Source of the DNA: Patescibacteria group bacterium
GTDB taxonomy: Bacteria; Patescibacteriota; UBA1384; JBAYJO01
Length of the DNA stretch: 64,000 nucleotides
Assembly: GCA_041665085.1 (NCBI GenBank)
Contig: JBAYJO010000001.1
Span: 40,671 to 104,670, forward strand
Direction of reading: 5' to 3'
The stretch's first letter is position 1. Each line of letters opens with the position of its first letter. Shown one piece after another: positions 20,861 through 63,386 of the stretch. The notes below the pieces were generated by a model. That model made no database searches, was not told the origin of the DNA, and worked only from the letters and a program-made list of their open reading frames with translations. The position numbers and the translations under genes were made by a program.

Positions 20861-20983
20861 TAATTTCTAATTTCTAATTTCTAATTAATTTCCAATATTT
20901 TAAATGTTTAATGTTAAATCCTTGATTATCCTTTGATCATTTATTAATTAGGATTTATTTAGTAATTAGTAATTAGAAATTTT
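20861..20983. repeat. TIR-bounded AT-rich element, copy A
   Basis: 5' (TAATTTC)n TAATTAATTTCCAAT and 3' TAGTAATTAGTAATTAGAAATT inverted ends. Lies between convergent genes. Confidence 0.55.
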
Positions 20984-20993
20984 GTAATTTTAG

Positions 20994-22076
20994 CTAGTAT
21001 TCTCGATATATCATATAGTGAGCAATGCCAAGCAGGAAGTCTTTTCCTTCTGAATTGAGTTCTATTTTTTCTAATGCATCGATTGCCTCATCAACTAATT
21101 TTTTGGCAAAATCCCTAGATTTATCCAATGCTCCGGTTTCAATAATTATTTTTTTTACATCTTCATGGTCTTCATTTGTGATATTTTTATTACCTAGATT
21201 TCTATTTATTATTTCTTTTTGAGCAGGCGAAGCCGATTCAAGAGCGTCAAAAATTAAAAGAGTTTTTTTGCCTTCCCTAATATCTGAAATAACAGGTTTG
21301 CCTATTTTTTCTTCAGAACCAAACATCCCAATTATGTCATCTTGAATTTGAAAAGCGGTGCCCATTGGTATGGTGTATTTTTCAAGATTTGTGATTTGTT
21401 CTTCTGTTGCGCCGGCAAGGATTGCCCCAAGTTTTACCGGTGTGTCAAAGGTATAAGGAGCTGTTTTTAATTCTTGAATCAAAATAATATCTTTTTTTGT
21501 AATATTTTCAGTGATTTGCGTAATTAAATCTAACGCTTCTCCGTAAATTTCTCGTTCATAAGTTTTGTTTAGCTCGGCAATTGCTTTTGATTGATTTTGA
21601 ATGTCAAAATTTGATGTAACTATGATTTCATTTGAATAAGCACAGGCTAAATCGCCAGCTAAAATTGCAATTGAAGTGCCGAAGTGGCGAGGATCAATTT
21701 TATTTTTGTATTTTTCATTGGCAATTTTCTCATAATCAGCGTGAATTGTTGTTTTGCCTCGTCTTAGTGAATCGTTGTCGATAATATCGTCATGAATTAA
21801 GAGAAAAGTTTGAGAGATTTCCATTGCCATTGATGCGTTTAAAGCGGATTTAGTATCTATTCCATCGTGAGCAAGATAACTGTAGTAGGCAAGTGCGGCG
21901 CGAATTCTTTTGCCTCCTCGAAGCGTCATATCTTTCACATGTTCGGCCAGTGCTTCGGCGTGAGGTGAGATATTTTTGGCATTTTCCACTTTTTGAGATA
22001 AAAATTTATCTAATTCAAGATCAATTTTAAGTTTAAAGTCTTGCAGTTGATTTATTGCTGTATTTATCTCGACCAT
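20994..22076 (-). CDS. Polyprenyl diphosphate synthase (FPP/GGPP synthase family)
   Basis: First Asp-rich motif LIHDDIIDND and second FQIQDDIIG. Confidence 0.85.
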   Translation of the reverse strand: MVEINTAINQLQDFKLKIDLELDKFLSQKVENAKNISPHAEALAEHVKDMTLRGGKRIRAALAYYSYLAHDGIDTKSALNASMAMEISQTFLLIHDDIIDNDSLRRGKTTIHADYEKIANEKYKNKIDPRHFGTSIAILAGDLACAYSNEIIVTSNFDIQNQSKAIAELNKTYEREIYGEALDLITQITENITKKDIILIQELKTAPYTFDTPVKLGAILAGATEEQITNLEKYTIPMGTAFQIQDDIIGMFGSEEKIGKPVISDIREGKKTLLIFDALESASPAQKEIINRNLGNKNITNEDHEDVKKIIIETGALDKSRDFAKKLVDEAIDALEKIELNSEGKDFLLGIAHYMIYREY

Positions 22077-22085
22077 ATTTTCCTT

Positions 22086-23864
22086 TTAAATTATTTCTAA
22101 TACTTTTTTGCAAATTCCATTAGCTGTTAAGCCATATTTTTCTCTAAGTTCGTTAATTTCTCCGTGTTCGATGAAATCTTCAATTCCAATTCTTACAACT
22201 TGAGTGTCTTGAATGTTTTGTTTTTGAAGCTCTTCCAAAATTGCGGAGCCAAAACCACCATCTAAAATATTTTCCTCAACAGTGATTATTTTACCGGTTT
22301 TTGCGGCATTTTTTACCATTTCCGAATCAATCGGTTTTACTGACCTGGCGTTATATACTGTTGCGTGGATATCATTCTTTTTAAGTAGATTTGATGCCTC
22401 AATAGCGGGATAGACCATGGATCCGATGGCTAAAATTGCAGCGTTGTTTCCTCGTCTTAACTTTTCTGCTTTTCCGATCTCGAGTTTTTCAAGAGTTCGG
22501 TTCATTGCGCTTCCGATGCCTGTCCCGCGAGGATAGCGAATGGCAATTGGACCTTCAGTGTATTGGGTGGCAGTGTAAAGCATATGCTGGAGTTCGTTTT
22601 CATCTTTTGGCGCCAAAATTATCATATGCGGGATATTTCTTAAATATGACAGGTCAAAAGCTCCGTGATGAGTTGGTCCATCGGATCCAACAAGGCCGGC
22701 TCGGTCAATCGCAAAAATTACTGGAATTTTTTGCAAAGCAACATCATGTAAGATTTGGTCGTAACTTCTTTGAAGAAAAGTGGAGTAAATGGCAACAACC
22801 GGTTTAAATCCTTCAAGCGCCAGGGCGGATGCAAATACAACAGCGTGTTCTTCAGCAATACCAGTATCGAAGAATCTCTCGGGGAATTCAAGAGCGAATT
22901 TATCGATTCCTGTTCCCGCAGGCATGGCTGCGGTTATGGCTATGATTTTTTTATCTTTTTTTGCCAGCTTAATTAAGGTATTGCCAAAGACTTTAGTGTA
23001 GGTTAGTTTTTTGGTGTCTTTGGATGTTTTTCCTGATTCCAAAATAAATGGGCTGGTTGAGTGAAATGCAGGGGGATTGTGTTCGGAGTAGTAATATCCA
23101 AGACCTTTTTTTGTTTCAATATGAATCAGTTTTGGTCCTGGTGTTTCTTGGGCAAGATTAAACACATCAATTAATTGTTTAATGTCGTGCCCATCGATGG
23201 GACCGAAATATTTAAATCCAAGAGAATGAAATATTGATTCAATATCGGTGTGAGGCTCTCCATTCATATGAATAGAGGAAAGTTTTTCCAGATAATTGGC
23301 TATGCCTCCGGTATTTTTTGAGATGGAAAATTTATTATCATTTAAAATTACTGTAAGATCGGTTTCTGTTGAACCAACATTATTTATACCTTCAAAAGTT
23401 AAGCCATTTGTTAGGCTGCCATCCCCGATAATTGCAACAACATGATTTTTTTCTTTTTTTAGATCGCGAGCTTGAGCAAAACCTAGCGCAGCCGAAACAG
23501 CCGTTCCGACATGACCGGCTCCATAGCAGTCGTGCTCGCTTTCTTCTCTTTTCAAATATCCACTTAGCCCGTCTTTTAATCTTAATGTTGAAAATTTTTC
23601 ATATCTTCCGGTGAGTAGTTTGTGTGTGTATGCCTGATGTCCGACATCCCAGACGATTTTATCTTCAGGGGAATTATATGAGTAGTGAAGTGCGATTGTG
23701 AGTTCGACTGTTCCCAAGTTTGGGGCTAAATGGCCACCGTTTTTTGCAACGGTTTTAATAAGGACTGTTCTGATTTCTTCAGATAGTTTTTTTAGCTGGG
23801 TAATCGGTAGCTTCTTTAAGTTTTTCGGACCTTTAATTTTTTTGAGTAAAGATTTTTTAAACAT
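22086..23864 (-). CDS. dxs: 1-deoxy-D-xylulose-5-phosphate synthase
   Basis: TPP-binding GDG region, DVGHQAYTHK, transketolase-like C-terminal domains. Confidence 0.9.
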   Translation of the reverse strand: MFKKSLLKKIKGPKNLKKLPITQLKKLSEEIRTVLIKTVAKNGGHLAPNLGTVELTIALHYSYNSPEDKIVWDVGHQAYTHKLLTGRYEKFSTLRLKDGLSGYLKREESEHDCYGAGHVGTAVSAALGFAQARDLKKEKNHVVAIIGDGSLTNGLTFEGINNVGSTETDLTVILNDNKFSISKNTGGIANYLEKLSSIHMNGEPHTDIESIFHSLGFKYFGPIDGHDIKQLIDVFNLAQETPGPKLIHIETKKGLGYYYSEHNPPAFHSTSPFILESGKTSKDTKKLTYTKVFGNTLIKLAKKDKKIIAITAAMPAGTGIDKFALEFPERFFDTGIAEEHAVVFASALALEGFKPVVAIYSTFLQRSYDQILHDVALQKIPVIFAIDRAGLVGSDGPTHHGAFDLSYLRNIPHMIILAPKDENELQHMLYTATQYTEGPIAIRYPRGTGIGSAMNRTLEKLEIGKAEKLRRGNNAAILAIGSMVYPAIEASNLLKKNDIHATVYNARSVKPIDSEMVKNAAKTGKIITVEENILDGGFGSAILEELQKQNIQDTQVVRIGIEDFIEHGEINELREKYGLTANGICKKVLEII

Positions 23865-24972: not shown

Positions 24973-25101
24973 AACTTAATTTTATCAAATATTGCTCATT
25001 TTGCATATAGTAGAATTCATTAGCGTTCTAGTATGTTGTGGGTTTAAAATGTTTTTTTGAGGTAATATATAAATTAGATATTGAATCTATTTAGGAGGGA
25101 A

Positions 25102-25551
25102 GTGAAAAAAGTTTCACAGGCAATTTGGCTTGATTCTAAAAAAATTGAAAAACCTGTGAATTTAAGAAAAAAAACTTGGGCTTTTTTAATTTTTGAGCTT
25201 GAAAAAATGGATTATGATGATTTAATACAGCATTTAGGGGATTTGGGTTATGGTAATGCTAAAAAATTAGATAAATTCAAAGCATTGAAAATAATTGCTG
25301 ATTGCCCAGCGCCTTTTCTTTTGAGAATTGGAATTTTAAATTTTGCTGATTTGATGAGTAATACAGTTATTTCTTTAGACGAAGGTGTTGAATATATTAT
25401 TGATAAAAAAGCGGCAGATGAATTAAAATCAAGTACGCAATCTGTTGATCTAATTAGACTTTACGATAATAAATTAAAAAGGTTTGATCGAAAAGAAATT
25501 ATCCAATCAATATTTTCAGAAAAAGTTTTTGACCAACTATCTGAAAATTAA
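25102..25551 (+). CDS. Hypothetical protein (GTG start after RBS AGGAGGG)
   Basis: Its 5' region is duplicated at 26571-26668 and 27751-27840. Confidence 0.45.
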   Translation: MKKVSQAIWLDSKKIEKPVNLRKKTWAFLIFELEKMDYDDLIQHLGDLGYGNAKKLDKFKALKIIADCPAPFLLRIGILNFADLMSNTVISLDEGVEYIIDKKAADELKSSTQSVDLIRLYDNKLKRFDRKEIIQSIFSEKVFDQLSEN

Positions 25552-25564
25552 TAATTATTAGAAT

Positions 25565-25897: not shown

Positions 25898-25900
25898 ATT

Positions 25901-26457: not shown

Positions 26458-26673
26458 TACTGCACCTCTATTTGTGTGCGAATGCATGTGTTCTTATTGC
26501 TAAGTATATGTTGTTTTATCAAGCTGTCAAGAGTTCATTACTTTTTTTATGGATTAAAATATTGTATTCAAATGTTTTTTTGAGGTAATATATAAATTAG
26601 AGATAGAATCTATTTAGGAGGGAAGTGAATAAAGTTTTGAGGGCAATTTGGAATGAATTTATTGTCTAAAAAT

Positions 26674-27639: not shown

Positions 27640-27750
27640 GAGTTAATTTTATTTTAATAAATTGATTTTTGCAATAAATTTTCTTTTGTTATTTGAGTTG
27701 ATTTAATTAATAAATCGAGCTAATTTAGAGTTAATGAAAAATCAAATAAT

Positions 27751-27840
27751 AAAAATTGGAAAACCTGTAAATTTAAAAAAAAGACTTGGATTTTTTTAAT
27801 TTCTGGGCTTGAAAAAATTGATTATAGTAATTTATTACGG
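27751..27840 (+). pseudogene. Degraded fragment homologous to codons ~13-45 of the 25102 gene
   Basis: ~80% nucleotide identity to 25139-25228, with a frame disruption. Confidence 0.5.
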
Positions 27841-34516: not shown

Positions 34517-36243
34517 TAGGGTTAGTTTTATTAGTGATAATAATTTTAACTGGTGGAATTTTAGGAATAGCTGTTTATAGCAGCAATAAAAAATCGATTG
34601 TTGGCAAATTTTTTCTATTAACATCCATTAGCATTCTTTTGTGGAATATTTTTGGTTATTTAGGATATTGGACAAGTTCAGATCAATATATAACTATTTT
34701 TTTTAAATTAAATTACTCAGCAGTTGCACTCTGTTTTTTGTCATTTTATTATTTTTCTGTGCACTTCCCAATCGAATTAAAAGAACGAAAACTAATCGAT
34801 TTTTCTATATATTTTTTAGGATTTGTTTTTTTAATTTTATCAATATCAAGTAATTGGATTATTAAAGATGTAAATCTTCTGAGTGATGGTTCTATCAAAA
34901 TGCAAACTGGATTTCTAGGGAATTATTTTTATCTTTACACTTTTATAGTGACTATTAATATTATTTACTCATATTTTAAAAGATATTCTTCATTAGATAG
35001 TGATATAAAATTAAAAGTGAAGTTTTTTATAATAGGAACTTCTTTGTGGGCTTTATTTAATGTAATTTTTAATATTATTGTTTCGGTTTTTGGAAATAAT
35101 TATCGCTATACCCAGCTTGGTGATTTTTCAGCAATATTTTTTATTGGCTTCACGGCTTATGCGATTTTGAAGCATCAATTATTTAATATCAAAGTCATTG
35201 CAACTGAAACTATTGTCGTTTTATTATCGATTGGCTTATTAGTAGAAACTTTTTTGTCCAATACTGTTGGGGAGGGTCTTATTAAAGCGGTGGTGTGGAT
35301 TCTTGCGACTTACGGGGGATATAGATTAATTAAAAGTGTTAAATTGGAGATTCAGCAGGCAGAAGATTTAAGAGCAGTTACTAAAAAGTTAGAAAGTACA
35401 AATAAAGATCTAAATGTTGCCAATGAAGAACTCAAAAAACTTGATAAAACTAAAGATGAGTTTATTTCAGTTGCAAGCCACGAATTAAATACTCCGCTTG
35501 CGGCTATAGAAGGTTATTTATCGATGATATTGGATGAACATATGGCTAAGGTAGATACGAAGGCAAAAGAGTATTTGAAACGCGCTTATCAATCGTCAAA
35601 ACGTCTTGCAGCACTTATTATGGACCTGCTTAATGTATCGCGTATTGAACAGGGAAGAATTCATCTTCAATATGTGGAAACTAATATCTGCGATTTAATT
35701 GAAGAAGTTGTTCATGAGCTTGAAATCAAAGCTGACCAAAAGAAAATTAAAATTAGTTTTGCCTGCCCTGCAAAAGAAATTCCAAAAACATGGCTTGATC
35801 AAGCTAGATTTCATGAAATTATTACAAATTTAACCGGAAATGCAATTAAATTTACTGAAAAGGGAGGCGTGGTTGTTTCTGCAAGCATGAAAGATGATAA
35901 GGTTACAATATGTATTAAAGATAATGGTATTGGAATTGCAAAAGAAAATTTAGAAAAATTGTTTCATAAATTTAGCCAAGTTAATCGAGAAGAATATGAA
36001 AAGCAGGGTTCCGGGCTTGGGCTGTATATTTCCAGAAGCTATGTAGAACTTATGAATGGTAGAATTTGGGCAGAAAGTGAAGGAGAAGGAAAGGGTACTT
36101 CATTTTTTGTCGAAATACCAATTCTAAAAAAGAAACCTTTTGACCCTAACGAAGGTGAAGGATCGGTTATAAGATCAACTCCTGATCAGGAAGTGATGAA
36201 ACAAGTAATGCAAATATCAGAGAAGCATGCGATAAAAGAATAA
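34507..36243 (+). CDS. Sensor histidine kinase with multi-TM N-terminal domain
   Basis: H-box VASHELNTPL, N-box LTGNAIKFT, G1 IKDNGIGI, G2 GSGLGLYIS. Confidence 0.85.
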   Translation: MGLIGLVLLVIIILTGGILGIAVYSSNKKSIVGKFFLLTSISILLWNIFGYLGYWTSSDQYITIFFKLNYSAVALCFLSFYYFSVHFPIELKERKLIDFSIYFLGFVFLILSISSNWIIKDVNLLSDGSIKMQTGFLGNYFYLYTFIVTINIIYSYFKRYSSLDSDIKLKVKFFIIGTSLWALFNVIFNIIVSVFGNNYRYTQLGDFSAIFFIGFTAYAILKHQLFNIKVIATETIVVLLSIGLLVETFLSNTVGEGLIKAVVWILATYGGYRLIKSVKLEIQQAEDLRAVTKKLESTNKDLNVANEELKKLDKTKDEFISVASHELNTPLAAIEGYLSMILDEHMAKVDTKAKEYLKRAYQSSKRLAALIMDLLNVSRIEQGRIHLQYVETNICDLIEEVVHELEIKADQKKIKISFACPAKEIPKTWLDQARFHEIITNLTGNAIKFTEKGGVVVSASMKDDKVTICIKDNGIGIAKENLEKLFHKFSQVNREEYEKQGSGLGLYISRSYVELMNGRIWAESEGEGKGTSFFVEIPILKKKPFDPNEGEGSVIRSTPDQEVMKQVMQISEKHAIKE

Positions 36244-36373
36244 AAATAGTTTTTAAAGTTCATAAAGTCTATAAAGTCGAAAGGGAAAAAGATTACTTCG
36301 TTTTGCTCGCAATGATAAAGGATATGGTAATGCCTAGAGCTAATCACTCTAGGCATTTATGTCTTATGTGAGG

Positions 36374-37342
36374 CTAGTCGTAGATTGACCAGCCGAGTTG
36401 TTTGATAGTGTCGGCAGAGATGCTGAGCTTGACGAGCTCGTTCTTACTGATTTTAGCGTCCCCTCCCCAGTCGATGACTTTCCAGCTATCTTTTGCTTTC
36501 TTCAGAAGATATGTCGTATCACCACCATACTGATGTTCTCGGGCGTCAACTACATAGTTTGTAATAGCGGCATAGTCGCCCGCGATCTTCTTCTGTCTGA
36601 ACCGATCTTTGTATGGCGGCGGCGTAATGCTAAACGGTGGAGTACATATGTTGTAGTATTCGACCGTTTCCTCAATCGTGAGTATTCTCTTGCTCTTCAG
36701 CAGTTTGATCCTTGATTGTTCCCAAAGCCGTTCGGATCTTTCGAGAATCTTCACACCACAGGGGTTGGAAAATGCCATATCTTTAGGGTGTATAATAGGT
36801 ATTTCCCAACTACGGGAGCCGTAGACATCGGTTATGTAGTATCGCATTGCTTGTGCTGAAGCTATTTCCGATTCAAGAATCCATTTACCATCAGATGATA
36901 CTTTGTTCACGATGTCGGTGTTAGCATTGATCATTTTCCGTAGCGATGTATAAGATATGCTCAATCCTTTGATCTTTGGTGAAGCATTACCGCACTCTAT
37001 TTCCCAGCAGTTGTCGGCGACCTGCTTCATGTTTGTTCCGTCGATATTGACCGCATAGAGATATCTCTGGCGGCTGTTAACTTCGGAGATGAAGTAAATC
37101 GACTTATTGTCTGGTGAGAAAACAGCTGATTCAATGAGGCAGATTGGACCGGGAAATTTGCCGGTGCAAATGAGCTTGTTGTTTCTGCCGTCTAGGTTAG
37201 AAACTTGCAATTCATCTTTCTGCCACCCAATATCAGGGCTTGAAGTTCTCACGATGTACAGCATTTTTGGGTTTGTTGCATTGGTTGATGATGTTGCGAC
37301 GAGCAATACCAAAGTGACAAAAAACAGGATTCTTTTATTCAA
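36374..37342 (-). CDS. Secreted beta-propeller-like protein (paralog 1), GC-rich
   Basis: Signal peptide. SPDNKSIYFIS and SSDGKW PD40-like repeats. C-terminus LGWSIYD. Confidence 0.55.
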   Translation of the reverse strand: MNKRILFFVTLVLLVATSSTNATNPKMLYIVRTSSPDIGWQKDELQVSNLDGRNNKLICTGKFPGPICLIESAVFSPDNKSIYFISEVNSRQRYLYAVNIDGTNMKQVADNCWEIECGNASPKIKGLSISYTSLRKMINANTDIVNKVSSDGKWILESEIASAQAMRYYITDVYGSRSWEIPIIHPKDMAFSNPCGVKILERSERLWEQSRIKLLKSKRILTIEETVEYYNICTPPFSITPPPYKDRFRQKKIAGDYAAITNYVVDAREHQYGGDTTYLLKKAKDSWKVIDWGGDAKISKNELVKLSISADTIKQLGWSIYD

Positions 37343-37739
37343 GGAACGGTACCTCCGCGAAGTGATGAGTAGATTATATAACTGAATTGTTTATTTTTCA
37401 ATAGGTTGGATTGGTTGTTGGAATGACAAATAGGGTTAAAATGATTGCTATATTTCGTTCGAATGATAATTAGTGTTATTATAAAATTAAGTCTAATACG
37501 GAATAGTATTAAGTATTAAAAAATAGTTTTTAAAATCTATAAAGTCAGAAAGTAACTGGATTCCAGCTTTCCGCCTAGGTTCGGTGAGATTGGTCACTGT
37601 AATGACAGAAGGGAAAAGATTGCCACGGATGACCTCGCAATGACAGAGGGGACTAAAATGGCAAATGAGTTGGAATGTGATAAGAAAATGGTAAGGCCTG
37701 AAGCGGGGAGCTTCAGGCCTTTGGTTTTGTGCGAGCCGG

Positions 37740-38996: not shown

Positions 38997-39374
38997 ATGT
39001 ATAAAATTATGTTGGTTGAAGATGATAAAATACTTCAGGAAATGTATAATGCCAGACTTGAAGCAGAGAGCTTTGAAGTCAAAGTGGCTGAAAATGGAAG
39101 AGAAGCAATAAATCAATTAAAGGATTGGCATCCTGATTTAATTTTGCTTGATATTATGATGCCTGAAATGAATGGAATGGAAGTTTTACATTATTTAAAG
39201 TCTGAACCAAAAACAGAAAAGATCCCGGTATTTATTTTGACTGCACTCGGACAATCAAAAGACCGTGAAGCAGGTCTTAAAGCAGGAGCAGATGATTATA
39301 TCGTTAAGTCCGATCTAATGCCAAAAGAAGTGGTGGAGAAGATTAATCAAGTTCTTAAAGTTAAAAGTTCATAA
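38997..39374 (+). CDS. Single-domain response regulator (REC only)
   Basis: IMLVEDD, LILLDIMMP, DDYIVKS. Confidence 0.85.
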   Translation: MYKIMLVEDDKILQEMYNARLEAESFEVKVAENGREAINQLKDWHPDLILLDIMMPEMNGMEVLHYLKSEPKTEKIPVFILTALGQSKDREAGLKAGADDYIVKSDLMPKEVVEKINQVLKVKSS

Positions 39375-39392
39375 AGTTTGTAAAGTCTAAAA

Positions 39393-39737: not shown

Positions 39738-39781
39738 TTTTTCAAGTTTTCTTACTTTATAAACTTTTAACTTTAAGAACT

Positions 39782-46142: not shown

Positions 46143-46150
46143 ATTGTGAA

Positions 46151-46185
46151 ATTCCTAATTTCTAATTCCTAATTTCTAATTAACT
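46151..46185. repeat. Partial copy (5' heptamer array only) of the same element
   Basis: AATTCCTAATTTCTAATTCCTAATTTCTAATTAAC between pilC and pilB. Confidence 0.4.
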
Positions 46186-46197
46186 TTAAATTTCGGA

Positions 46198-48018: not shown

Positions 48019-48310
48019 AGCCCTCCTTGCTAAGTTAAAAGTTGAAAGTCTGTAAAGTCCATAAAGTTCAATAAGCAGAATATCAGAAGATTTTATAAGT
48101 TAAAAGTTGAAAGTCAGTAAAGTCTTGAATATGTTCGGTGTTATTAAAAATTACTTAGCACCGGCGGACCTATATGCGTAATTTTCAACAACACCTCATA
48201 TTTAGAGATTATAAAGTTAAAAATTGGAATTTTTAACTTAAAATTTCTTCTGACTTTATTTTACTATGATTTGTCAAAAAAAAGAATGACGACTAAACTA
48301 AGAAAGTAAA

Positions 48311-48446
48311 TATCTAATTTCTAATTTCTAATTTTTAATTAATTCTCCAATGATCAAATTATTAGAATGTTTTTAAAGAAAGTTAGAAATTTATATTCTT
48401 ATTTATTCAATTTATTTTAGAAATTAGTTATTAGTAATTAGAAAAT
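48311..48446. repeat. TIR-bounded AT-rich element, copy B
   Basis: Same ends: ATCTAATTTCTAATTTCTAATT...CTCCAATG ... TTAGAAATTAGTTATTAGTAATTAGAAAATT. Confidence 0.55.
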
Positions 48447-48453
48447 TATATTT

Positions 48454-50274: not shown

Positions 50275-52908
50275 ATGGCGCGAAAAGATGAAAAACTGAA
50301 TCAACTAAAATTGCCTCCTCAAAACATTGAGGCAGAAAAGAGTATTTTAGGTTCTATTCTTTTGGATAAAGATGCGATTTTGAAGATTGTTGATTTTTTA
50401 ACAGAAGATGATTTTTATTTGACCGAACATAAACTTATTTATGGTGCAATGGTTAAATTATTTGAAAAAAGATCTCCAATTGATCTGGTAACGCTATCTG
50501 ATGTTTTAGAATCTGAAAAACATTTAGACAGGGTTGGGGGCGCAGATTTTTTAAGCTCGCTTGTAAATGTGGTGCCAACAGCAGCTCATGTGATTGATTA
50601 TGCAAGAATCGTTTCAGATAAATCATCAAGGCAAAGGCTTATTTCTGCCGGTACTAAAATTGTTGAAATGGCATATAATGAAGAGATTGAAACTGCCGAG
50701 GTGATGGATAAATCAGAGCAGCAATTATTTAATGTGAGCCAAAAACAGGTTAAAGATAAATTTATTCCGATTAAAGATGTTTTAGTTGATAGTTTTAATA
50801 GATTGGATAAAATTCATAAGGAAAAAGGGACTTTAAGAGGAGTGCCATCGGGTTATAAGGATTTGGATAATTTACTTTCCGGTTTTCAGCCGTCAGATTT
50901 GTTAATTTTAGCAGCTCGTCCTTCAATGGGTAAAACATCTTTTGCTTTATCGATAGCGCAGCATGCAACAATTGATGAAAAAGTCGGAGTTGGTATTTTT
51001 TCTCTTGAAATGAGCAAGGAGCAGTTGGTTGATCGTTTGATTTGTTCTCAAGCCGGAGTTGATTCGTGGAAGCTTCGAAATGGACATTTGAGTGATGATG
51101 ATTTTAGAAATGTAGGTTATGCAATGGGGCATTTATCTGAAGCGCCTTTGTATATTGATGATTCGCCAATGCTTACAGTGTTAGATATTAGAACCAAAGC
51201 TAGAAGGTTGATGATGGAACAACCGCTTGGGTTAATTATTATTGATTATTTGCAGCTTATTTCAGGTTCATTTAAAAGTGATGGAAACAGAGTTCAAGAG
51301 ATTTCAGAGATTTCTCGAGCATTGAAAGGTTTAGCAAGAGAATTAAATGTGCCGGTGATGGCTCTTTCACAGCTTTCGCGTGCGGTTGAACATCGTGATA
51401 AAAAAGTGCCGCAGCTTTCTGATCTTCGTGAATCGGGCTGTTTAGCTGGCGATACTTTAATTTACAATGCTAAAACCGGACAAAATGAACAGATTAAAAA
51501 TTTGGTTGGAAAGGAATATGTTTGTTTGTCTCTTAATGATAAGAATAAATTAGTAAATACAAAATCTAGTAGGATTTTTTCAACTGGTAGAAAACAAATT
51601 TATGAATTAGTAATGGCTAGTGGTAAGCGAATCAAGGCGACTGCAAATCATAAGTTTTTGAAATTTTATGAGTGGGTTAGGTTAGATCGGTTGAGTGTTG
51701 GTGATTTTTTGGCGACTCCTCGGGAAATAAGATTTTCAGATTCAACTCAAGATATTTCTGATAATAAAATTATTTTATTAGCTCATTTAATTGGTGATGG
51801 CTGTTATTTGTCGCATCAACCTTTGCATTATACTAATGCTGATCCGCAATGTCTTAAAATTGTTGACGAGGTTTCTTATGATGAGTTTAAAACCAAAAAC
51901 AGATTAGTTAAGCAACAGAATTGGTTTCATTTGTATTTATCCGCACCAATTAAATTAGCACGAGGCAGAAAAAACCCTATTATAAAATGGTTAGATGAAG
52001 ATTTGAATATTTTTAATCAACGATCTGGAGAAAAAAGAATTCCAAAAATAGTTTTCTCTCTTGATAATAAAAAAGTATCTTTATTTATTAGTCATTTATT
52101 TGCAACTGATGGAGGATTAACAAAATCATCTGGAATTTGGAGGCTTCACTATGCTTCAAAAAGTAGAAGGCTGATCGAAGATTTGCAGCATTTATTGTTG
52201 AGATTTGAGATTCTTTCAAGAATTAAAGAAAATAAGAAAAAAGGATATGCAATTGTCTATGATTTAGTAATTTCGGGATCAGATAACCAGCTAAGTTTTT
52301 TGATAAATATCGGAATATTCGGAGAGAAGGAAAAAAATGTTAAACTTGCTATTGCTGAATTAAGAATGATTAATTCTAATACAAATGTTGATATTATACC
52401 ATCTGAAGTGTGGCAGAAAATTAAAGATGGCTTTATGAAACTAAATTGGTCTGCGCGGAAGTTTCATCAAGAAATGAATTGGGCTTATAGCGGCACGCAA
52501 AGATATAAAAATGGCTTATCCAGAGATCGTTTGGACAAAATTGCCGAGGTTCTTAAAAATAATGAATTAAAACAAATTGCTGATTCCGATATATTTTGGG
52601 ATCAAATTAAAGAAATAAATAAGCTGGGTGTTGAAGATGTTTATGATATAACAATTCCTGATAGTCATAATTTTATTGCAAATGATATGATCGTTCATAA
52701 TTCGATTGAGCAAGATGCAGATGTAGTGATGTTTATTTACCGAGAAGATTATTACGAGGCTGATACCGAAAGAAAAGGTATTACTGATATTTTAATTAGA
52801 AAACATAGAAACGGTCCCATTGGATCAGTTGAACTATTTTTTGTACCGGAACAGATGACGTTTAGATCAATTGATAAAAAAAGATCAGTGCCGAGTGAGA
52901 TAGAATAG
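50275..52908 (+). CDS. dnaB: Replicative DNA helicase DnaB interrupted by an intein
   Basis: DnaB N- and C-terminal domains. The extein sequence resumes at SIEQDADVVMFIYRE. Confidence 0.9.
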   Translation: MARKDEKLNQLKLPPQNIEAEKSILGSILLDKDAILKIVDFLTEDDFYLTEHKLIYGAMVKLFEKRSPIDLVTLSDVLESEKHLDRVGGADFLSSLVNVVPTAAHVIDYARIVSDKSSRQRLISAGTKIVEMAYNEEIETAEVMDKSEQQLFNVSQKQVKDKFIPIKDVLVDSFNRLDKIHKEKGTLRGVPSGYKDLDNLLSGFQPSDLLILAARPSMGKTSFALSIAQHATIDEKVGVGIFSLEMSKEQLVDRLICSQAGVDSWKLRNGHLSDDDFRNVGYAMGHLSEAPLYIDDSPMLTVLDIRTKARRLMMEQPLGLIIIDYLQLISGSFKSDGNRVQEISEISRALKGLARELNVPVMALSQLSRAVEHRDKKVPQLSDLRESGCLAGDTLIYNAKTGQNEQIKNLVGKEYVCLSLNDKNKLVNTKSSRIFSTGRKQIYELVMASGKRIKATANHKFLKFYEWVRLDRLSVGDFLATPREIRFSDSTQDISDNKIILLAHLIGDGCYLSHQPLHYTNADPQCLKIVDEVSYDEFKTKNRLVKQQNWFHLYLSAPIKLARGRKNPIIKWLDEDLNIFNQRSGEKRIPKIVFSLDNKKVSLFISHLFATDGGLTKSSGIWRLHYASKSRRLIEDLQHLLLRFEILSRIKENKKKGYAIVYDLVISGSDNQLSFLINIGIFGEKEKNVKLAIAELRMINSNTNVDIIPSEVWQKIKDGFMKLNWSARKFHQEMNWAYSGTQRYKNGLSRDRLDKIAEVLKNNELKQIADSDIFWDQIKEINKLGVEDVYDITIPDSHNFIANDMIVHNSIEQDADVVMFIYREDYYEADTERKGITDILIRKHRNGPIGSVELFFVPEQMTFRSIDKKRSVPSEIE
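51439..52701 (+). mobile_element. Intein (421 aa) with LAGLIDADG homing-endonuclease domain inside DnaB
   Basis: Begins CLAGDTLI (block A) and ends VHN with a +1 Ser. LAGLIDADG motifs LLAHLIGDGCY and LFISHLFATDGGL. Confidence 0.85.
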
Positions 52909-53863: not shown

Positions 53864-55867
53864 GTGTCTAATATAGATTTACTTGAAGGTTTAAATGAAA
53901 GACAAAAAGAAGCGGTGCTTTTAACAGAAGGTCCGCTCCTTGTTATTGCCGGGGCTGGATCAGGAAAAACCAAGGTTTTGACGCATAGATTAGCCCATTT
54001 AATTCTTGATAAAAATATTAGTCCATATAGTATTTTGGCAGTTACATTTACAAATAAAGCAGCAGGGGAAATGGGTCAGCGAATGCATTCGCTACTCATT
54101 TCAAATTCCAAATATCAAATTCCAAATCCCAAAAAAAATCAAAATTCCGAACATACTGCCGACTTTATGAACTTTCAACTCGCCTCTTCGGCGAGCGCCG
54201 ATAAGGCGCTTTATGAACTTTCGACTAAATTGCCATGGCTTGGAACTTTTCACTCTATTTGCGTTAGGATTTTAAGAAAAGAAATTCAAAATATTGGCTA
54301 TGAGCGAAATTTTGTTATCTATGATTCAGATGATTCACTTTCTTGTATTAAAAAAATTATTAGGGAATTAAAATGGGATCCGAAGGAGATTAATCCAAAT
54401 TCTGTCAGAAATATGATTTCAAGTGCTAAGAGCGAATTTATTGACCCTAATACTTACGCGAAATATGCTGATGGATATTTTCAGGAAAAAGTAACGGAAA
54501 TTTATAAAAGATATCAAGATTTTTTGAGAAGATCTAATGCCCTTGATTTTGATGATTTGCTTAACCAGACATTAGTTTTATTTGAAGAAAAGCCGGAGAT
54601 TTTGTTTAAATATCAGGATTTATTTAAATATATTTTGATTGATGAGTATCAAGATACAAATCAAGCCCAGTATTTGCTGGCGAAAAAATTATCAGATAAA
54701 CACAAAAATATTTGCGTGGTTGGCGATGATTATCAAGCAATTTATTCTTGGCGTGGGGCAAATTTTAAAAATATTTTAAATTTTGAGCGAGATTATCCAA
54801 AGGCTAAAGTAGTAAAATTGGAACAAAATTATCGAAATAGTCAAAATATTATTCAAGCGTCAGAAAATGTGATTAAGAAAAATACTTTGCGTACAGATAA
54901 AAATATGTGGACGAAAAATGAAGAAGGGGCGCCGATTACGATTTATAAGGCAGCAGATGAGAGCGATGAGGCTGATTTTATTGTTGGTGAAATTGTAACT
55001 CTTAAAAAAGCAGGTGAAAGTTTAAATTCAATGGCGATTTTGTATCGAACAAATGCTCAATCAAGATCTCTTGAAGAAGCATTTTTGAATTATGGCATTC
55101 CATATCGGGTTATTGGTTCCTTGAAGTTTTATGAAAGACGAGAAATTAAAGATATAATTTCTTATTTGCGTTTAATAGTAAATCCGTCTGATTTTATTGC
55201 TTTTGAACGAGCGGTATCAGTACCTCCTCGAGGCATTGGCGATAAAACAATAGAACAGTTAGTAAAAATTCCAAATTACAAATCCCAAATTACAAATAAA
55301 TCTCAAATCCTAAATCTCAATATTCAAAAAAAAATGCAGGATTTTTTGATTATGATTGAAGATTTAAGAAATATGGCGGCGGAGAATTTACCGGCAGATT
55401 TTATTGATATTTTAACTGCCCGAACTAATTATCGAAGTTATTTGGTTGATGGGACTATTGAAGGGGAAGCAAGATGGGAAAATGTTGAGGAGCTTAAAAC
55501 AGTAGCGCAGAATTTTGATAGTCTAGAATCTTTTTTGGAAAATATTGCTTTGATGACTGATCTTGATGAATATGATGAAGCTAAAGAATCTGTGACTTTA
55601 ATGACAATGCATTGTGCTAAAGGTCTTGAGTTTGAAACGGTTTTTATTGCAGGAATGGAAGAAGGCCTTTTTCCTCATTCAAGATCAATTAGCGAGCCGA
55701 ACGAAATGGAAGAGGAGAGACGGCTTTGTTATGTCGGGATGACTCGAGCCAAAATGAGGCTTTATATGATTTATGCGGGTTCCAGAACAGTTTTTGGACG
55801 AACTCAAATGGGAATTAAATCGCGTTTTTTAAACGAGATTCCAGAGTGGTTGTGCGAGGAGATTTAG
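53864..55867 (+). CDS. UvrD/PcrA-family ATP-dependent DNA helicase
   Basis: Walker A AGAGSGKT, motif II DEYQDTN, motif III GDDYQAIYSWRGA, NYRN. Contains in-frame repeat-derived insertions. Confidence 0.9.
   Translation: MSNIDLLEGLNERQKEAVLLTEGPLLVIAGAGSGKTKVLTHRLAHLILDKNISPYSILAVTFTNKAAGEMGQRMHSLLISNSKYQIPNPKKNQNSEHTADFMNFQLASSASADKALYELSTKLPWLGTFHSICVRILRKEIQNIGYERNFVIYDSDDSLSCIKKIIRELKWDPKEINPNSVRNMISSAKSEFIDPNTYAKYADGYFQEKVTEIYKRYQDFLRRSNALDFDDLLNQTLVLFEEKPEILFKYQDLFKYILIDEYQDTNQAQYLLAKKLSDKHKNICVVGDDYQAIYSWRGANFKNILNFERDYPKAKVVKLEQNYRNSQNIIQASENVIKKNTLRTDKNMWTKNEEGAPITIYKAADESDEADFIVGEIVTLKKAGESLNSMAILYRTNAQSRSLEEAFLNYGIPYRVIGSLKFYERREIKDIISYLRLIVNPSDFIAFERAVSVPPRGIGDKTIEQLVKIPNYKSQITNKSQILNLNIQKKMQDFLIMIEDLRNMAAENLPADFIDILTARTNYRSYLVDGTIEGEARWENVEELKTVAQNFDSLESFLENIALMTDLDEYDEAKESVTLMTMHCAKGLEFETVFIAGMEEGLFPHSRSISEPNEMEEERRLCYVGMTRAKMRLYMIYAGSRTVFGRTQMGIKSRFLNEIPEWLCEEI
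54164..54232 (+). repeat. RPE-like palindromic element inserted in-frame in the helicase gene
   Basis: CTCGCC-TCTTC-GGCGAG and GCGCC-GATAA-GGCGC hairpins, flanked by direct repeats CTTTATGAACTTTC(A/G)ACT. Confidence 0.6.
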
Positions 55868-55959
55868 AATAGTATTGAGTATAGAGTATTGGGTATTGGG
55901 TATCGGGTATCGGGAAAATAGAGATTGTTTCGTCGGGACTCCTCGCAATGACAAAGGAG

Positions 55960-56022
55960 TCGAAAGTTTATAAAGCGCCTCATTGGCGCTCGCCGAAGAG
56001 GCGAGTTGAAAGTTCGTAAAGT
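55960..56022 (+). repeat. RPE-like palindromic element, intergenic copy (inverse orientation)
   Basis: ~90% identical to the reverse complement of 54164-54232. Confidence 0.6.
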
Positions 56023-58446: not shown

Positions 58447-58457
58447 GTATTAATTAA

Positions 58458-58606
58458 GAATTTCTAATTTCTAATTTCTAAATAAAATCCAATGTTTAAA
58501 AAAATAAATTATAGAGTAATTTATTCGAAAAATGTTATAATAACTAGGTTAGCCATTATTAATTTAGTCATTAGTTAGGAATTAGTAATTAAATATTAGA
58601 AATTTT
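58458..58606. repeat. TIR-bounded AT-rich element, copy C
   Basis: GAATTTCTAATTTCTAATTTCTAA...ATCCAATG ... TTAGGAATTAGTAATTAAATATTAGAAATTTT. Confidence 0.55.
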
Positions 58607-58612
58607 ATAAAT

Positions 58613-59476
58613 ATGATTGATTTAACAAATATTTCTTTAATTAAAAGTTTACTCAAGATTGATAATTCATCTCCTGACAGAAGGATGGGTCAAAACTTTT
58701 TGATTAGCAGCAAAAGCTTGGAAAGAATTTCCAACTCAACTGAACTTGAGGGTCAGACTGTTTTAGAGATTGGAACCGGTCTTGGCGTATTGACTCAAGA
58801 GCTTTGTAAAAAAGCTAAAAGAGTTATATCGGTTGAAAAAGACGAGCGAATGTATAATATTGCAAAAGACGTTTTAATTTTTGACAATTTAACTCTTTTG
58901 AATGAAGACATTTTGGATTTTGAAGTTGAAAAATATATTTCGGGTGAGTTTAAGATCGTAGCGAATATTCCTTATCAAATTACTTCTCCGATAATCAGAA
59001 AATTTCTGCCCAATAAAAATCTTACAGAGATGATTTTATTGATGCAAAAAGAGGTAGCAGAGCGTATTTGCGCAAAACCAGGTAGCAGCAAGCGAGGATA
59101 TTTGACGCTTGTTTGTGAATTTTATAGTGATCCGTCGATTCTTTTCGGCATATCAAAAAATTGTTTTTGGCCAAGCCCGAAAGTTGATAGCTCGGTAGTA
59201 AAGTTTAAAGTGCCTCTTCGGCAATCGCCGGAGAGGCGAGTTTATGAAGATATTAATGCCCATAAAGTTGATGAAAAAGAACTATTTAGGATAGTACAGG
59301 CTGGTTTTTCATCAAAAAGAAAACAACTTTTGAATTCATTATCAGCTGGATTGAGATGTGATAAATCCGAAATCGAAAATATTTTAAATAAAGTTAATAT
59401 TATTCCGACACGACGAGCTGAAACTTTGACGCTTGAGGAATGGTGCTTAATTACCAAAAAAATACCAGTCAATTAA
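58613..59476 (+). CDS. rsmA: 16S rRNA (adenine1518/1519-N6)-dimethyltransferase
   Basis: GQNFL, VLEIGTGLG, NIPYQITSP. Confidence 0.85.
   Translation: MIDLTNISLIKSLLKIDNSSPDRRMGQNFLISSKSLERISNSTELEGQTVLEIGTGLGVLTQELCKKAKRVISVEKDERMYNIAKDVLIFDNLTLLNEDILDFEVEKYISGEFKIVANIPYQITSPIIRKFLPNKNLTEMILLMQKEVAERICAKPGSSKRGYLTLVCEFYSDPSILFGISKNCFWPSPKVDSSVVKFKVPLRQSPERRVYEDINAHKVDEKELFRIVQAGFSSKRKQLLNSLSAGLRCDKSEIENILNKVNIIPTRRAETLTLEEWCLITKKIPVN
59196..59249 (+). repeat. RPE-like palindromic element inserted in-frame in rsmA
   Basis: AAAGTGCCTCTTCGGCAATCGCCGGAGAGGCGAGTTTATGAAG aligns with the 55960-56022 copy. It encodes KVPLRQSPERRVYE. Confidence 0.55.
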
Positions 59477-59659
59477 TTGATTACCAAGAAACAATCATCA
59501 ATAATCAGTTAATAACCAATTATTCAATTATCAATTTTCAAACAATTTTCTATTCTATTTGGCTATTGGTTATTGATTATTACTTATGTGGTTATTGGTT
59601 TTCATGTGATTTTGTTTATTTATTTGAGTATTTATCATTTATTTTGTTATTATTAGATT

Positions 59660-61009
59660 ATGCAAGAAGATATAAAAAAAATCGAAGTTGATATTGCAGA
59701 AGCAGCTGGAAAAATTGCCGAGGATGTTAGTGAAATTGGAAAAGATGCTGTTAAAGCTGTTAAATCTGATGTGAAGGTTTTAGGGCCAGGACTTATTACC
59801 GGTGGTGCTGATGATGATTCGTCTGGAGTTGTAACATATTCTCAAGTTGGAGCTCAATTTGGGTATCGCATGAACTGGCTTTGCTTGATTTCGCTTCCGC
59901 TTATGACAGCAGTTCAGGAAATGTGTGCCAGAATCGGTATTGTTACCGGAAAAGGTCTTGCCGGAGTAATAAGAAATCATTATTCAAAATGGGTTTTATA
60001 TTTTGCAGTAACATTACTTTTGATCGCAAACGGAATAAATATTGGGGCAGATCTAGGTGCCATGGCAGCGGTTACAAAATTGGTTTTTGGCGGGAATTTT
60101 TATATTTTAGTAATCATGTTTACTATAATTACCTTATTTTTAGAGATATTCGTTTCTTATAAAGTTTATTCAAAATATTTAAAATGGTTAGCTTTTTCAC
60201 TTTTGTCATATTTTGTAACGGCACTAATTGTTCATCAGGATTGGACTCAAATTATAAAATCAATTGCAGTGCCTTCAATGCCTTTTACAACCCCTGCTTT
60301 AATGGCATTGGTAGGATTTTTAGGTACAACAATTTCTCCTTATCTTTTTTTCTGGCAGGCAGCTGAAGAAGTTGAAGAAGAGGTAAAAGAAAAAAGAATA
60401 TTTGCTTTTGGGTGGGGTTTGCCAAGATTTACATGGAGGCATATTAAAGCAATGAGAAAAGATAATGCTTTTGGTATGATTTTTTCGAATATTGTAGCTT
60501 TGTTTATTATGCTAACTGCTGCTGCAACCTTAAACCGAAATGGCGTTCAGATTACTGATGCTGCTTCTGCTGCCGGAGCATTAAGACCGCTTGCAGGAGA
60601 TTTCGCATTTTCGTTATTTGCAATTGGAATTATTGGTACCGGACTTCTTGGCGTGCCGGTGCTTGCAGGATCAGCTGCTTATGCCGTAAGCGAGTCTTTT
60701 CATTGGAAAACCGGACTTTATCGAAAGTTTAATCAAGCTCATGGTTTTTATGGGATTATTACTTTGGCGACTTTGGCAGGGCTTTGTATTAATTTTATAG
60801 GCATTGATCCAATGAAAGCTTTGTATTATGCCGCAATAGTAAATGGAATCGCGGCGCCTTTCTTGATTTTGATTATTTTGTTTATTGGAAATAATAAGAA
60901 AATTATGGGTAACAAATCTAATGGCCCTTGGTCAAATTTTTTCGGAGTTATTGCATTTCTTTTGATGTCTTTAGCAGTAGCTGCACTTTTCATTTTCTGG
61001 GGGAAGTAA
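59660..61009 (+). CDS. mntH: Nramp-family divalent metal transporter
   Basis: GPGLITGGADDD motif. ~11 TM helices. Confidence 0.8.
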   Translation: MQEDIKKIEVDIAEAAGKIAEDVSEIGKDAVKAVKSDVKVLGPGLITGGADDDSSGVVTYSQVGAQFGYRMNWLCLISLPLMTAVQEMCARIGIVTGKGLAGVIRNHYSKWVLYFAVTLLLIANGINIGADLGAMAAVTKLVFGGNFYILVIMFTIITLFLEIFVSYKVYSKYLKWLAFSLLSYFVTALIVHQDWTQIIKSIAVPSMPFTTPALMALVGFLGTTISPYLFFWQAAEEVEEEVKEKRIFAFGWGLPRFTWRHIKAMRKDNAFGMIFSNIVALFIMLTAAATLNRNGVQITDAASAAGALRPLAGDFAFSLFAIGIIGTGLLGVPVLAGSAAYAVSESFHWKTGLYRKFNQAHGFYGIITLATLAGLCINFIGIDPMKALYYAAIVNGIAAPFLILIILFIGNNKKIMGNKSNGPWSNFFGVIAFLLMSLAVAALFIFWGK

Positions 61010-61141
61010 GATAGTTAGTAAAGTTCGTAAAGTCGAAAGTTTATAAAGTTTATAAAGTTGAAGGTCTAGATAAATAAAATTTTTAATAATTGCAAAACTG
61101 CCCAAAGAATCTTTGGGCAGTTTAGTCAATGTGTTAAGACG

Positions 61142-62296: not shown

Positions 62297-62404
62297 TAGC
62301 GAAACCAGTTGCCTTGGAAAAGACGAATCTCGGGAGCAGCCACAAGCTGTTCCTGTTTCTTTTCTATAGAATAAAATTAAAATTAAGTGTAAAATTTAAA
62401 TACT

Positions 62405-63121
62405 ATGAAAAATATTGGAAAATTATTTATTGTCGCCACTCCGATTGGTAACCTTGAAGATATAACTTTCAGAGCAATTCGTGTACTAAAAGAAGTCGAT
62501 ATGATCGCTTGTGAGGATACACGACACTCGCGCGTCTTGTTTGACAGATACGAGATAAAAACACCAACCGTGAGCTATTTTGAGGCAAATAGGGCTAAGG
62601 TATTAAGCAAGATTGCTTATATAATTTCCCAAATTCAAAAAGGGAAAAATATTGCTCTTGTAACTGATGCCGGTACTCCTGGAATTTCAGATCCGGGGCA
62701 GTTTCTGATTCAAAAAGCAACCGAGGCTGAAATTGAAATTAGTCCAATTCCAGGACCAAGCGCATTTGTTTCTGCCTTATCAATTTTCGGTTTTAATGAC
62801 GGAAGTTATTTATTTATACCTTTTCTGCCCAAGAAAAAAGGTCGTCAAACCTTACTTAAAAAAATTTGCAGGATGGATTCAGCAATCGTTTTTTATGAAT
62901 CGCCTCATCGAGTTATTAAAACCTTGGAAGATTTAGCGATGTATTTTTCTGCCGAAAGACCTATTGTTATCTGTAGGGAGCTAACCAAACAGTTTGAGGA
63001 AATTTTTAGAGGAACAATTGAAGAAGCACAGAAATATTTTAATGAATCAAAAATTAGAGGAGAATTTGTATTTGTGGTTAAAGGAAGTAATAATGTAAAT
63101 AATAGCTCTCTGAAAGATTAA
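62405..63121 (+). CDS. rsmI: 16S rRNA (cytidine1402-2'-O)-methyltransferase
   Basis: TPIGNLEDITFRAIRVLKEVDMIACEDTRHS. Confidence 0.85.
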   Translation: MKNIGKLFIVATPIGNLEDITFRAIRVLKEVDMIACEDTRHSRVLFDRYEIKTPTVSYFEANRAKVLSKIAYIISQIQKGKNIALVTDAGTPGISDPGQFLIQKATEAEIEISPIPGPSAFVSALSIFGFNDGSYLFIPFLPKKKGRQTLLKKICRMDSAIVFYESPHRVIKTLEDLAMYFSAERPIVICRELTKQFEEIFRGTIEEAQKYFNESKIRGEFVFVVKGSNNVNNSSLKD

Positions 63122-63285
63122 AGGAAATATGGCAAAAGATAAAATTATTCATACTAATAAAAAGAAAAAACCGAATAAGAGGATTCAGAAAAAGCTTCAA
63201 AAAGCGACTGACAAATTAATTGATCAGTATGGGGATGTTTTAAAGAAATTAGGAAAGACCTGATGCAAAATGACAGAATTACTAA

Positions 63286-63386
63286 TTATTCTAATTTCTA
63301 ATTAATTTTCAATGAATAAATTATTAAAAATCATACTTAAATCATTGGTTGTTGTTAATTGTTTAGAAATTAAAAATTAGAAATTT
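63286..63386. repeat. TIR-bounded AT-rich element, copy D
   Basis: TTATTCTAATTTCTAATTAATTTTCAATG ... TTAGAAATTAAAAATTAGAAATTT. Confidence 0.5.

Follow-up and report, generated by a model that had tools for sequence, protein, structure and literature searches.

A short foldback element that resides in 23S rRNA is called an intervening sequence (IVS). The IVS of Coxiella burnetii lies in helix 45, carries an open reading frame (ORF) for the S23p protein (PF05635) with two to three tandem heptamers (GACAGAT, the number varying between strains) immediately 5' of the start codon, and is excised by RNase III, the mapped 5' cut falling at the first heptamer (PMC4990558). The 23S genes of the Candidate Phyla Radiation (CPR) contain many short, ORF-less, uncharacterised insertions at known IVS sites, and some rRNA insertions contain PF05635 ORFs, repeats being unmentioned in that account (Tsurumaki et al. 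2024, PMC11270868). Heptamer arrays are also known in convergent (inverted) pairs from Xanthomonas, which has 70-75 such pairs per genome with a length that varies between species (PMC4692102). Here we describe a family of small foldback elements with TAATTTC heptamer arms in a 64,000-nt stretch of a Patescibacteria genome (contig JBAYJO010000001.1, positions 40,671 to 104,670; hereafter the window, ~34% G+C and part of a 147.8-kb metagenome contig, ena:ERZ27249449:k141_1442930), and argue, at a probability of about 0.68, that its five loci are ORF-less, internally deleted copies of a selfish IVS-type foldback cassette. The family consists in the window of four full copies and one solo arm:

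20854 to 20989, + strand: full ORF-less copy 1 (repeat finding, arm profiles, predicted fold)
46144 to 46186, strand ambiguous: solo arm, (AATTCCT/AATTTCT)x4 (arm profiles)
48309 to 48447, + strand: full ORF-less copy 2, in the dnaX upstream region (repeat finding, predicted fold, arm profiles)
58452 to 58610, + strand: full ORF-less copy 3 (repeat finding, predicted fold, arm profiles)
63274 to 63394, + strand: full ORF-less copy 4 (repeat finding, predicted fold, arm profiles)

These limits were refined with nhmmer arm profiles and repeat finding. Every full copy follows one plan. A 5' arm with two to three TAATTTC units runs into TAATTAATT-YCAATG, an AT-rich core of ~40-80 nt that varies among copies follows, and a 3' arm of TTAG(A/T)AA units, the inverted complement of the 5' arm, ends in AATTAGAAATT. 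The full copies are 121-159 bp long with arms that are 74-85% complementary, and the arm profiles match the window loci with E-values of 1e-9 to 1e-5. Conservation sits in these arms, the cores being little conserved (mean column identity of 67% in an alignment of the copies). Predicted folds pair the arms on both strands, with energies of -16 to -29 kcal/mol and z-scores of -1.1 to -5.2. Because either strand of the element reads (TAATTTC)n...(GAAATTA)n, orientation is not reliably scorable.

The abundance of these arrays is well above expectation. The 14-mer TAATTTCTAATTTC, allowing one mismatch or none, occurs 9 times in the window against 0.28 expected, a count reached in 0 of 100 shuffles. 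There are 12 period-7 arrays where 0.6 would be expected and 4 period-9 arrays where 0.2 would be, and arrays of periods 5, 6, 8 and 10-12 are not enriched in the window. Beyond the five loci the arm profiles detect no copy, either in the window or in another 17 kb of the contig (81 kb in total). Rfam has no match for the elements, and two tRNAs are all that reaches its gathering thresholds in the window. The preliminary description of this DNA, which reported at least five copies with mutually inverted ends, is borne out in the positions of the loci, in their number (exactly four full copies and one solo arm in 81 kb of contig) and in the inverted ends (for example, 20862-20896 against 20947-20981, 83% over 35 nt). 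It was also right in placing three copies immediately before genes, their ends lying 2-9 nt from the ATG of dnaX, rsmA and a Fic-family gene, and one between convergent genes. The CAATG terminus that it gave for the 5' arm needs amendment at one copy, that at 20861, which has CCAATA.

The elements take up almost all the room in spacers that would otherwise be very short. Copy 1 separates the convergent genes for NUDIX (stop 20846) and polyprenyl synthase (stop 20994), with 8 and 4 nt left to the respective stop codons. Its 5' arm (20854-20897) reads (TAATTTC)3 TAATTAATTTCCAATA, its core spans 20898-20945 and its 3' arm (20946-20989) reads TTAGTAA TTAGTAA TTAGAAA, with a predicted minimum free energy (MFE) of -25.9 and a z-score of -4.5. 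Copy 2 has a 5' arm at 48309-48354 ending in CTCCAATG and a 3' arm at 48413-48447; it begins 10 nt past a promoter-like -10 hexamer and ends 6 nt short of the dnaX ATG (48454), from which we infer that it sits in the dnaX 5' leader. Copy 3 fills the spacer between a G5-domain gene (stop 58446) and rsmA (ATG 58613), ending 2 nt before the ATG, with a 5' arm at 58452-58496 that ends in ATCCAATG, a 3' arm at about 58569-58610 and a predicted fold of MFE -26.8 and z-score -3.5. Copy 4 follows a 44-aa ORF (stop 63263) and ends 9 nt before the ATG (63404) of the Fic-family gene; its 5' arm (63274-63315) ends in TTTTCAATG, its 3' arm spans 63352-63394, and the element has an inner CAATGA...TCATTG pairing. 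The 44-aa ORF (63129-63263), directly upstream of the Fic-family gene, is lysine-rich and is possibly the antitoxin partner of that gene, copy 4 having inserted between the two. The solo arm makes up most of the 55-nt pilB-pilC spacer; since it is matched both by the 5'-arm profile (+ strand, E 1.3e-5) and by the 3'-arm profile (- strand, E 1.5e-4), its orientation is ambiguous.

Other organisms have longer elements whose termini are the same. A scan of GTDB genome contigs with the bare 17-mer TAATTTCTAATTTCTAA is unspecific, an estimated ~70 chance matches being expected in 596 Gb, and the matches listed include arrays from many phyla (among them loci L068, L030 and L111); those of the listed matches that have an inverted partner arm within 300 nt are almost all from Patescibacteria. 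A second scan, of metagenome contigs, used the 5' arm plus YCAATR as its pattern. The 3' arm and any ORF lie outside this pattern and are thus independent observations. The metagenome scan yielded many complete foldbacks, some of them in contigs of 61-63% G+C: an AT-rich TAATTTC foldback lies in the rpoB-rpoC spacer of L152 (~224-320; 63% G+C) and another, on the reverse strand of L210 (61% G+C), stands right after the 16S rRNA 3' end GGATCACCTCCTTA. Such AT-rich foldbacks in G+C-rich contigs are hard to reconcile with local birth by AT-rich drift. Across 37 related elements the arms are overall ~79% complementary.

In four metagenome loci (L149, L157, L166 and L229) and one GTDB Bacteroidetes metagenome-assembled genome (L068), an ORF of 113-125 aa (degenerate in L149) lies between a 5' arm of (TAATTTC)n and a 3' arm of (TTAGAAA)n. 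The four intact framed ORFs (L068, L157, L166, L229) match PF05635, the '23S rRNA IVS protein' family, with E-values of 5e-11 to 1e-16. The PF05635 ORF of L157 and that of L229 start at the ATG of YCAATG itself, and several ORF-less copies retain 'CCAATG ACTCAATTTC', which is similar to the opening codons of the L229 ORF. Both the 5' and the 3' ends of the ORF-bearing elements align with the window copies, which keep the YCAATG start context. From sequence, a parent-and-miniature relationship is thus plausible, the longer elements having the same termini, and these common termini of the ORF-less and ORF-bearing forms are one reason for the IVS-type reading.

Solitary arrays were also seen. At L010, L035, L086, L088, L115, L119 and other non-CPR GTDB loci, from Bacteroidota, Gammaproteobacteria and other groups, single (TAATTTC)n arrays with no inverted partner end a few nt before start codons. 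In L102 (Berkelbacteria) a solo heptamer array splits two copies of a ~30-nt segment (GCGCCGATGGAGCAGACTAAAGCGGTGACA and GCCCCTATGGAGCAGACCAAAGCGGTGACA) at the apparent 5' end of what by eye, unconfirmed by Pfam, is an M16-type peptidase gene, whose apparent start codon falls within the TTCAAATG motif of the element.

ORF-less relatives also lie inside 23S rRNA genes, as identified by Rfam LSU matches and placed by blastn to E. coli rrlH (E. coli numbering throughout). In L201 one copy follows about nt 530-560 and another about nt 1160-1190; L228 and L030 each have one near nt 540-548, L228 a second at about 1855-1888, and L111 one in the 2082-2223 region. The sites near 540 in L201, L228 and L030 we take to be helix 25, and that at 1160-1190 in L201 helix 45, both classical IVS sites and both sites of the short ORF-less CPR insertions of Tsurumaki et al. 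2024. The existence of these rRNA-borne relatives at IVS sites, with the Coxiella IVS as precedent, is a second reason for the IVS-type reading. None of the window copies stands at the tip of helix 25 or 45; all are in spacers of protein genes.

The same genome contains an ORF-bearing element of this class, with a different repeat unit:

39343 to 39785, + strand: intact PF05635 cassette with arms of ~9-nt units (repeat finding, Pfam)

The gene of this cassette (39393-39737) encodes a PF05635/TIGR02436 'four helix bundle' protein (Pfam E 3e-36) and is framed by (AAGTTCATA)n at 39343-39397 and its complement at 39737-39785, the two showing 84% complementarity over 49 nt. The final codons of a response-regulator gene overlap with the 5' array. 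In the syntenic site of the relative L122, where the flanking response regulator is 76% identical, the cassette is absent. The protein is much closer to database homologues than are the housekeeping proteins of this genome: >100 clusters of homologues are 64-72% identical to it, against two above 50% for DnaX.

The link between arrays and gene holds when loci are chosen by protein alone. Four distinct loci with homologues of the window protein, fetched regardless of repeats, have the gene co-oriented in operon spacers (for example, pheS-pheT, PrgI-TraC and ABC ATPase-permease), and inverted AAAGTT-type arrays frame it in 4 of 4. PF05635 proteins fall into a clade A, with 7-mer arms, and a clade B, with ~9-mer arms, so that the repeat unit tracks the protein clade; identity is 13-27% between the clades and 45-72% within them. 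A tblastn search with a clade-A protein against plasmids of cultured bacteria gave matches mostly in Nostocales, and of six plasmid loci fetched (Nostocales, Planktothrix) five have inverted heptamer arrays with locus-specific units and the sixth has direct arrays. The array units at these plasmid loci are:

GTAATTC / GAATTAC; GTCGGAG / CTCCGAC
AATCCCC and AATCGTA / TACGATT and GGGATTT; GTAAAAA / CTTTTNN (two loci)

Arrays cover 23% of the bases within 130 nt of protein-chosen PF05635 genes, compared with 2.4% elsewhere in the same loci. A tblastn search of the window PF05635 protein against all fetched loci found the protein itself and nothing else, the clades being too divergent, and was replaced by a motif and hidden Markov model search. 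That PF05635 genes chosen by protein are array-framed, with a unit type that tracks the clade, is a further reason for the IVS-type reading.

Two observations lie beside these. In L259 and L262 (Nostoc and Anabaena plasmids) the array-framed PF05635 genes lie between cas2 and cas1, on the opposite strand; the family has previously been reported in cas loci (PMC3936711). The window itself has further ~9-nt AAGTT-type arrays at 36242-36294, 37519-37562, 42127-42190, 42272-42329, 48021-48124 and 61007-61075, some of them in inverted pairs (for example, 42162-42195 with 42295-42328), which probably represent solo arms of the 9-mer cassette family or derivatives of it that lack the ORF.

Comparison with relatives suggests that elements of the TAATTTC family have been inserted. 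The protein database holds no close relative of this organism, the nearest DnaX homologues being 55% and 53% identical (loci L122 and L123), so that the comparison is across distant relatives rather than strains. L122 is syntenic with the window over the pil operon, dnaX, dnaB and uvrD. The element is absent upstream of dnaX in both L122 and L123, and in L122, the one relative contig that covers the site, the pilB-pilC spacer is 10 nt long compared with 55 nt in the window. Upstream of dnaX in the window lies the promoter-like site from which copy 2 is measured:

48271 to 48299, + strand: promoter-like site TTGTCA-N17-TAAACT, upstream of copy 2 and outside the element (sigma-70 consensus scan)

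Its geometry is kept in both relatives (TTGTTA-N16-TAAATT and TTGTCA-N17-TATATT), and in each of them the dnaX ATG stands ~60 nt from the -35 hexamer, against 183 nt in the window. Relative to these organisms copy 2 and the solo arm therefore appear to be insertions, or else the element was lost there. The case for insertion and a foreign source rests on this absence in relatives, on AT-rich foldbacks in contigs of 61-63% G+C and on the unusually close PF05635 homologues.

If the elements were host cis-regulatory modules, they might serve as an array for a regulator or nucleoid protein, as promoters or UP elements, as AU-rich translation enhancers, or as hairpins for mRNA stabilisation or processing. 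As such a role would allow, copies 2-4 and the solo arm stop 1-9 nt short of start codons with no clear Shine-Dalgarno (SD) sequence; for Beggiatoaceae, heptamers beside start codons have been put forward as translational regulators (PMC4679880), and heptamer arrays alter reporter expression in Nostoc (bioRxiv 2022.06.06.494920). The variant raised in the preliminary description, promoter- or UP-element-bearing repeats, finds no support in the sigma-70 consensus scan, which gave 0 + strand sites inside copies 1, 3 and 4, with counts at or below the shuffle means, and near copy 2 placed its one + strand site, that of dnaX, upstream of the element; copy 3 has a lone TGTTATAAT and no -35. A scan for terminators (G+C-rich stem plus U-tract) gave 0 terminator-like sites in all four copy regions. 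In 56 related foldbacks the ends abut gene starts 36 times and stops 32 times, which is no preference for starts. The usual arrangement is stop-element-start with 5-15 nt on each side, and closeness to start codons follows from the fact that the elements fill very short spacers. Moreover, copy 1 lies between convergent genes and has no downstream gene, the genes downstream of the others (dnaX, rsmA, Fic and pilC) are functionally unrelated, the dnaX of the relatives does without the element, and the arms lack the G-U asymmetry discussed below. We consider a regulatory origin unlikely.

A classical MITE (miniature inverted-repeat transposable element), that is, a non-autonomous element derived by deletion from an insertion sequence and moved in trans by a transposase that attaches to its heptamer-array terminal inverted repeats (TIRs), would account for small, AT-rich, multi-copy elements with imperfect TIRs that are absent at two orthologous sites in relatives. 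In some transposons multiple subterminal repeats do serve as binding sites. The difficulty lies in the partner and the target site. Pfam was run on a minority of the window ORFs, among them every gene next to a copy, and showed no transposase and no REP-associated tyrosine transposase, and in the longer elements with the same arms the PF05635 gene is the sole cargo found, with no transposase. No consistent direct repeat is visible by eye at the ends of the window copies, where the flanks are AT-rich and of low complexity, and related copies in G+C-rich contigs, whose ends are sharp, have flanks with extended inverted complementarity, not direct repeats. Hence of the MITE-like element proposed in the preliminary description we retain a miniature, TIR-bearing and probably inserted element, and drop the part that would need a transposase partner and a discernible target-site duplication; a MITE in the classical sense seems rather improbable. 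Identity with repetitive extragenic palindromes or bacterial interspersed mosaic elements was rejected, the elements being AT-rich, 121-159 bp long and array-based, not G+C-rich palindromes of 20-40 nt.

That heptamer arrays arose separately at each locus by slippage, with template switching making the palindromes and with no common origin or mobility, is highly improbable, since the excess of heptamer simple sequence repeats (SSRs) in many bacteria (with slippage the proposed cause, as far as Mrazek 2007 is cited in PMC4692102), the differences in unit number and unit variants among copies and the occurrence of the 17-mer as arrays in many phyla among the matches listed are outweighed by the non-repetitive inner motif TAATTAATT-YCAATG common to all four copies, the common asymmetry of the arms (5' TTTC, 3' GWAA) and the recurrence of the AT-rich design in contigs of 61-63% G+C and as the frame of a conserved gene.

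We therefore return to the IVS-type cassette, a reading that is also favoured by the pairing of the arms in predicted folds on both strands. Under this reading the copies would be transcribed within host transcripts, as in dnaX, where the element begins ~10 nt downstream of the conserved promoter-like -10 hexamer. The two arms could then pair in the RNA into an AU-rich stem of 25-35 bp, which, on the analogy of IVSs studied by experiment in Coxiella, Leptospira and Salmonella, RNase III may cut. Cleavage would take the insert out of the RNA and so make insertion tolerable in rRNA helices and operon spacers, and the number of heptamers would drift by slippage.

Several points weigh against this reading. 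There is no intact clade-A (7-mer-armed) cassette in 81 kb of contig, and for this reason the link from parent to miniature rests on the similarity of termini to elements of other organisms. The resemblance of the metagenome loci in the 5' arm and YCAATR is by construction of the search pattern. The cores are too short and too AT-rich to display coding remnants convincingly. Mismatches in the arms are without strand-specific G-U bias (84 of G-U type against 87 of A-C type, p = 0.88), so that the sequences give no sign of selection on an RNA stem as opposed to inverted termini at the DNA level, and RNase III cleavage is pure analogy. The relatives are distant (DnaX 55%) and may have lost the element. 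Lastly, no target-site duplication was discerned at the copies, and no mobility enzyme is known.

A broader interpretation is tentative, and we regard it as doubtful. The over-represented heptamer and 8-9-mer arrays of bacteria would largely be termini, solo arms and ORF-less remnants of one widespread class of selfish PF05635 cassette that colonises operon spacers and rRNA helix tips. The (pentameric) protein would recognise the array cognate to it, and RNase III cleavage of the array stem would make the insertions harmless. Cyanobacterial short tandemly repeated repetitive sequences (STRRs), the Xanthomonas paired arrays, start-codon arrays and the ORF-less insertions in CPR rRNA could all be covered. 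Singly, the excess of heptamer SSRs, the Xanthomonas paired arrays (PMC4692102), heptamers near start codons (PMC4679880; bioRxiv 2022.06.06.494920) and the Coxiella IVS heptamers are already described. In the open-access literature we found no paper that links heptamer array pairs generally to PF05635 cassettes, and no description of ORF-less IVS-type elements dispersed in CPR mRNA spacers. If true, the interpretation may join three loose ends, namely the abundance of intergenic heptamers, the role of PF05635/S23p and the ORF-less insertions in CPR rRNA, and it would change how intergenic repeats in streamlined CPR genomes are read: the inserts make up most of the length of several window spacers and of the dnaX leader. 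For annotation, such arrays are open to being mistaken for regulatory motifs or CRISPR-like repeats, and PF05635 genes have in the past been counted as cas-associated.

The genome carries several array families. Heptamer arrays of other units (GTATTGG/GTATCGG, TTGGTTA, AAATTAC/AAATCCC, ATTCCAA) lie at 55872-55914, 59559-59600, 55266-55320 and 54098-54133. The uvrD ORF (53864-55867) contains two in-frame repeat-containing segments (54098-54244 and 55266-55330), which account for 34 and 10 residues that the L122 orthologue (69% identical) lacks and are reminiscent of Rickettsia palindromic elements (RPEs); one of them combines CAAATYC heptamers with a GC-rich double hairpin set between TTTATGAAC units. 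A GC-rich hairpin repeat (AACTCGCCTCTTCGGCGAGCGCCGATAAGGCGCTTTA) is found at 54162-54244, 55940-56022 and 59206-59242. Most of uvrD lies between its first two copies, whose complementarity is 87% over 83 nt, and the third is inside the rsmA ORF.

Other features of the window concern genes and their leaders. DnaB (50275-52908; 877 aa) contains an intein with a LAGLIDADG domain, the L122 orthologue being 457 aa long and free of an intein. The upstream regions of two pilus genes, 42127-42268 and 48021-48287, are duplicated (92% and 80% identity), the duplication taking in an SD-containing leader, CCCTCCTTGC (- strand), and the TTGTCAAAAAAAAGAAT promoter-like box that also precedes dnaX. Two paralogous ORFs of ~320 aa (36374-37342 and 37740-38687, - strand) lie in a GC-richer (42%) stretch and have no significant Pfam domain. 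Repeats of ~90 nt at 25044-25228, 26567-26661 and 27747-27838 (75-87% identity) contain a strong SD (TAGGAGGG) and the first codons of small genes, and are duplicated gene starts or leaders.

Among known systems, the architecture of the elements has its analogy in eukaryotic Foldback (FB) transposons. These have long inverted termini made of tandem short subrepeats in variable number, and many copies consist of little beyond the arms. The likeness is one of architecture and no more, FB elements differing in domain of life, size and presumed enzymology. RPEs are palindromic repeats of ~100-150 bp in a reduced genome that are tolerated in unusual places. Similarly, relatives of the TAATTTC family lie inside rRNA genes and other window repeat families lie in frame inside uvrD; the TAATTTC copies of the window are, however, all intergenic, and RPEs have neither heptamer arrays nor an ORF-bearing form.

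Heptamer SSRs (cyanobacterial STRRs, Xanthomonas GGGAATC, Beggiatoaceae TAACTGA) are likewise tandem 7-nt units in intergenic positions, often beside start codons. Reports treat those arrays as SSRs, G-quadruplexes or regulatory motifs, with no link to PF05635 or IVSs, whereas the arrays in the window form both ends of a defined element whose inner motif is conserved. Bacterial MITEs of types such as Correia/NEMIS and RUP/BOX are alike in size (~100-160 bp), AT-richness, imperfect TIRs, intergenic position and frequent co-transcription, and stand in the same relation of miniature to longer parent. They differ from the window elements in that the termini of the latter are tandem arrays rather than a unique TIR, neither a transposase parent nor a target-site duplication was seen, and the longer relative carries a four-helix-bundle gene.

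Of the systems described, the IVSs, and not MITE families, come closest. They differ from the window copies in location, the latter being in mRNA leaders and intergenic spacers of protein genes rather than rRNA, and in that both window arms are arrays of another unit (TAATTTC); excision by RNase III would extend to the window copies by analogy. In common they have inverted termini that form an extended stem, an optional PF05635/S23p ORF in the loop, tandem heptamers right before the start of that ORF (as in Coxiella, PMC4990558) and ORF-less forms of ~100-200 nt. Copies related to those of the window occupy helices 25 and 45, and IVSs too are regarded as selfish and horizontally spread.

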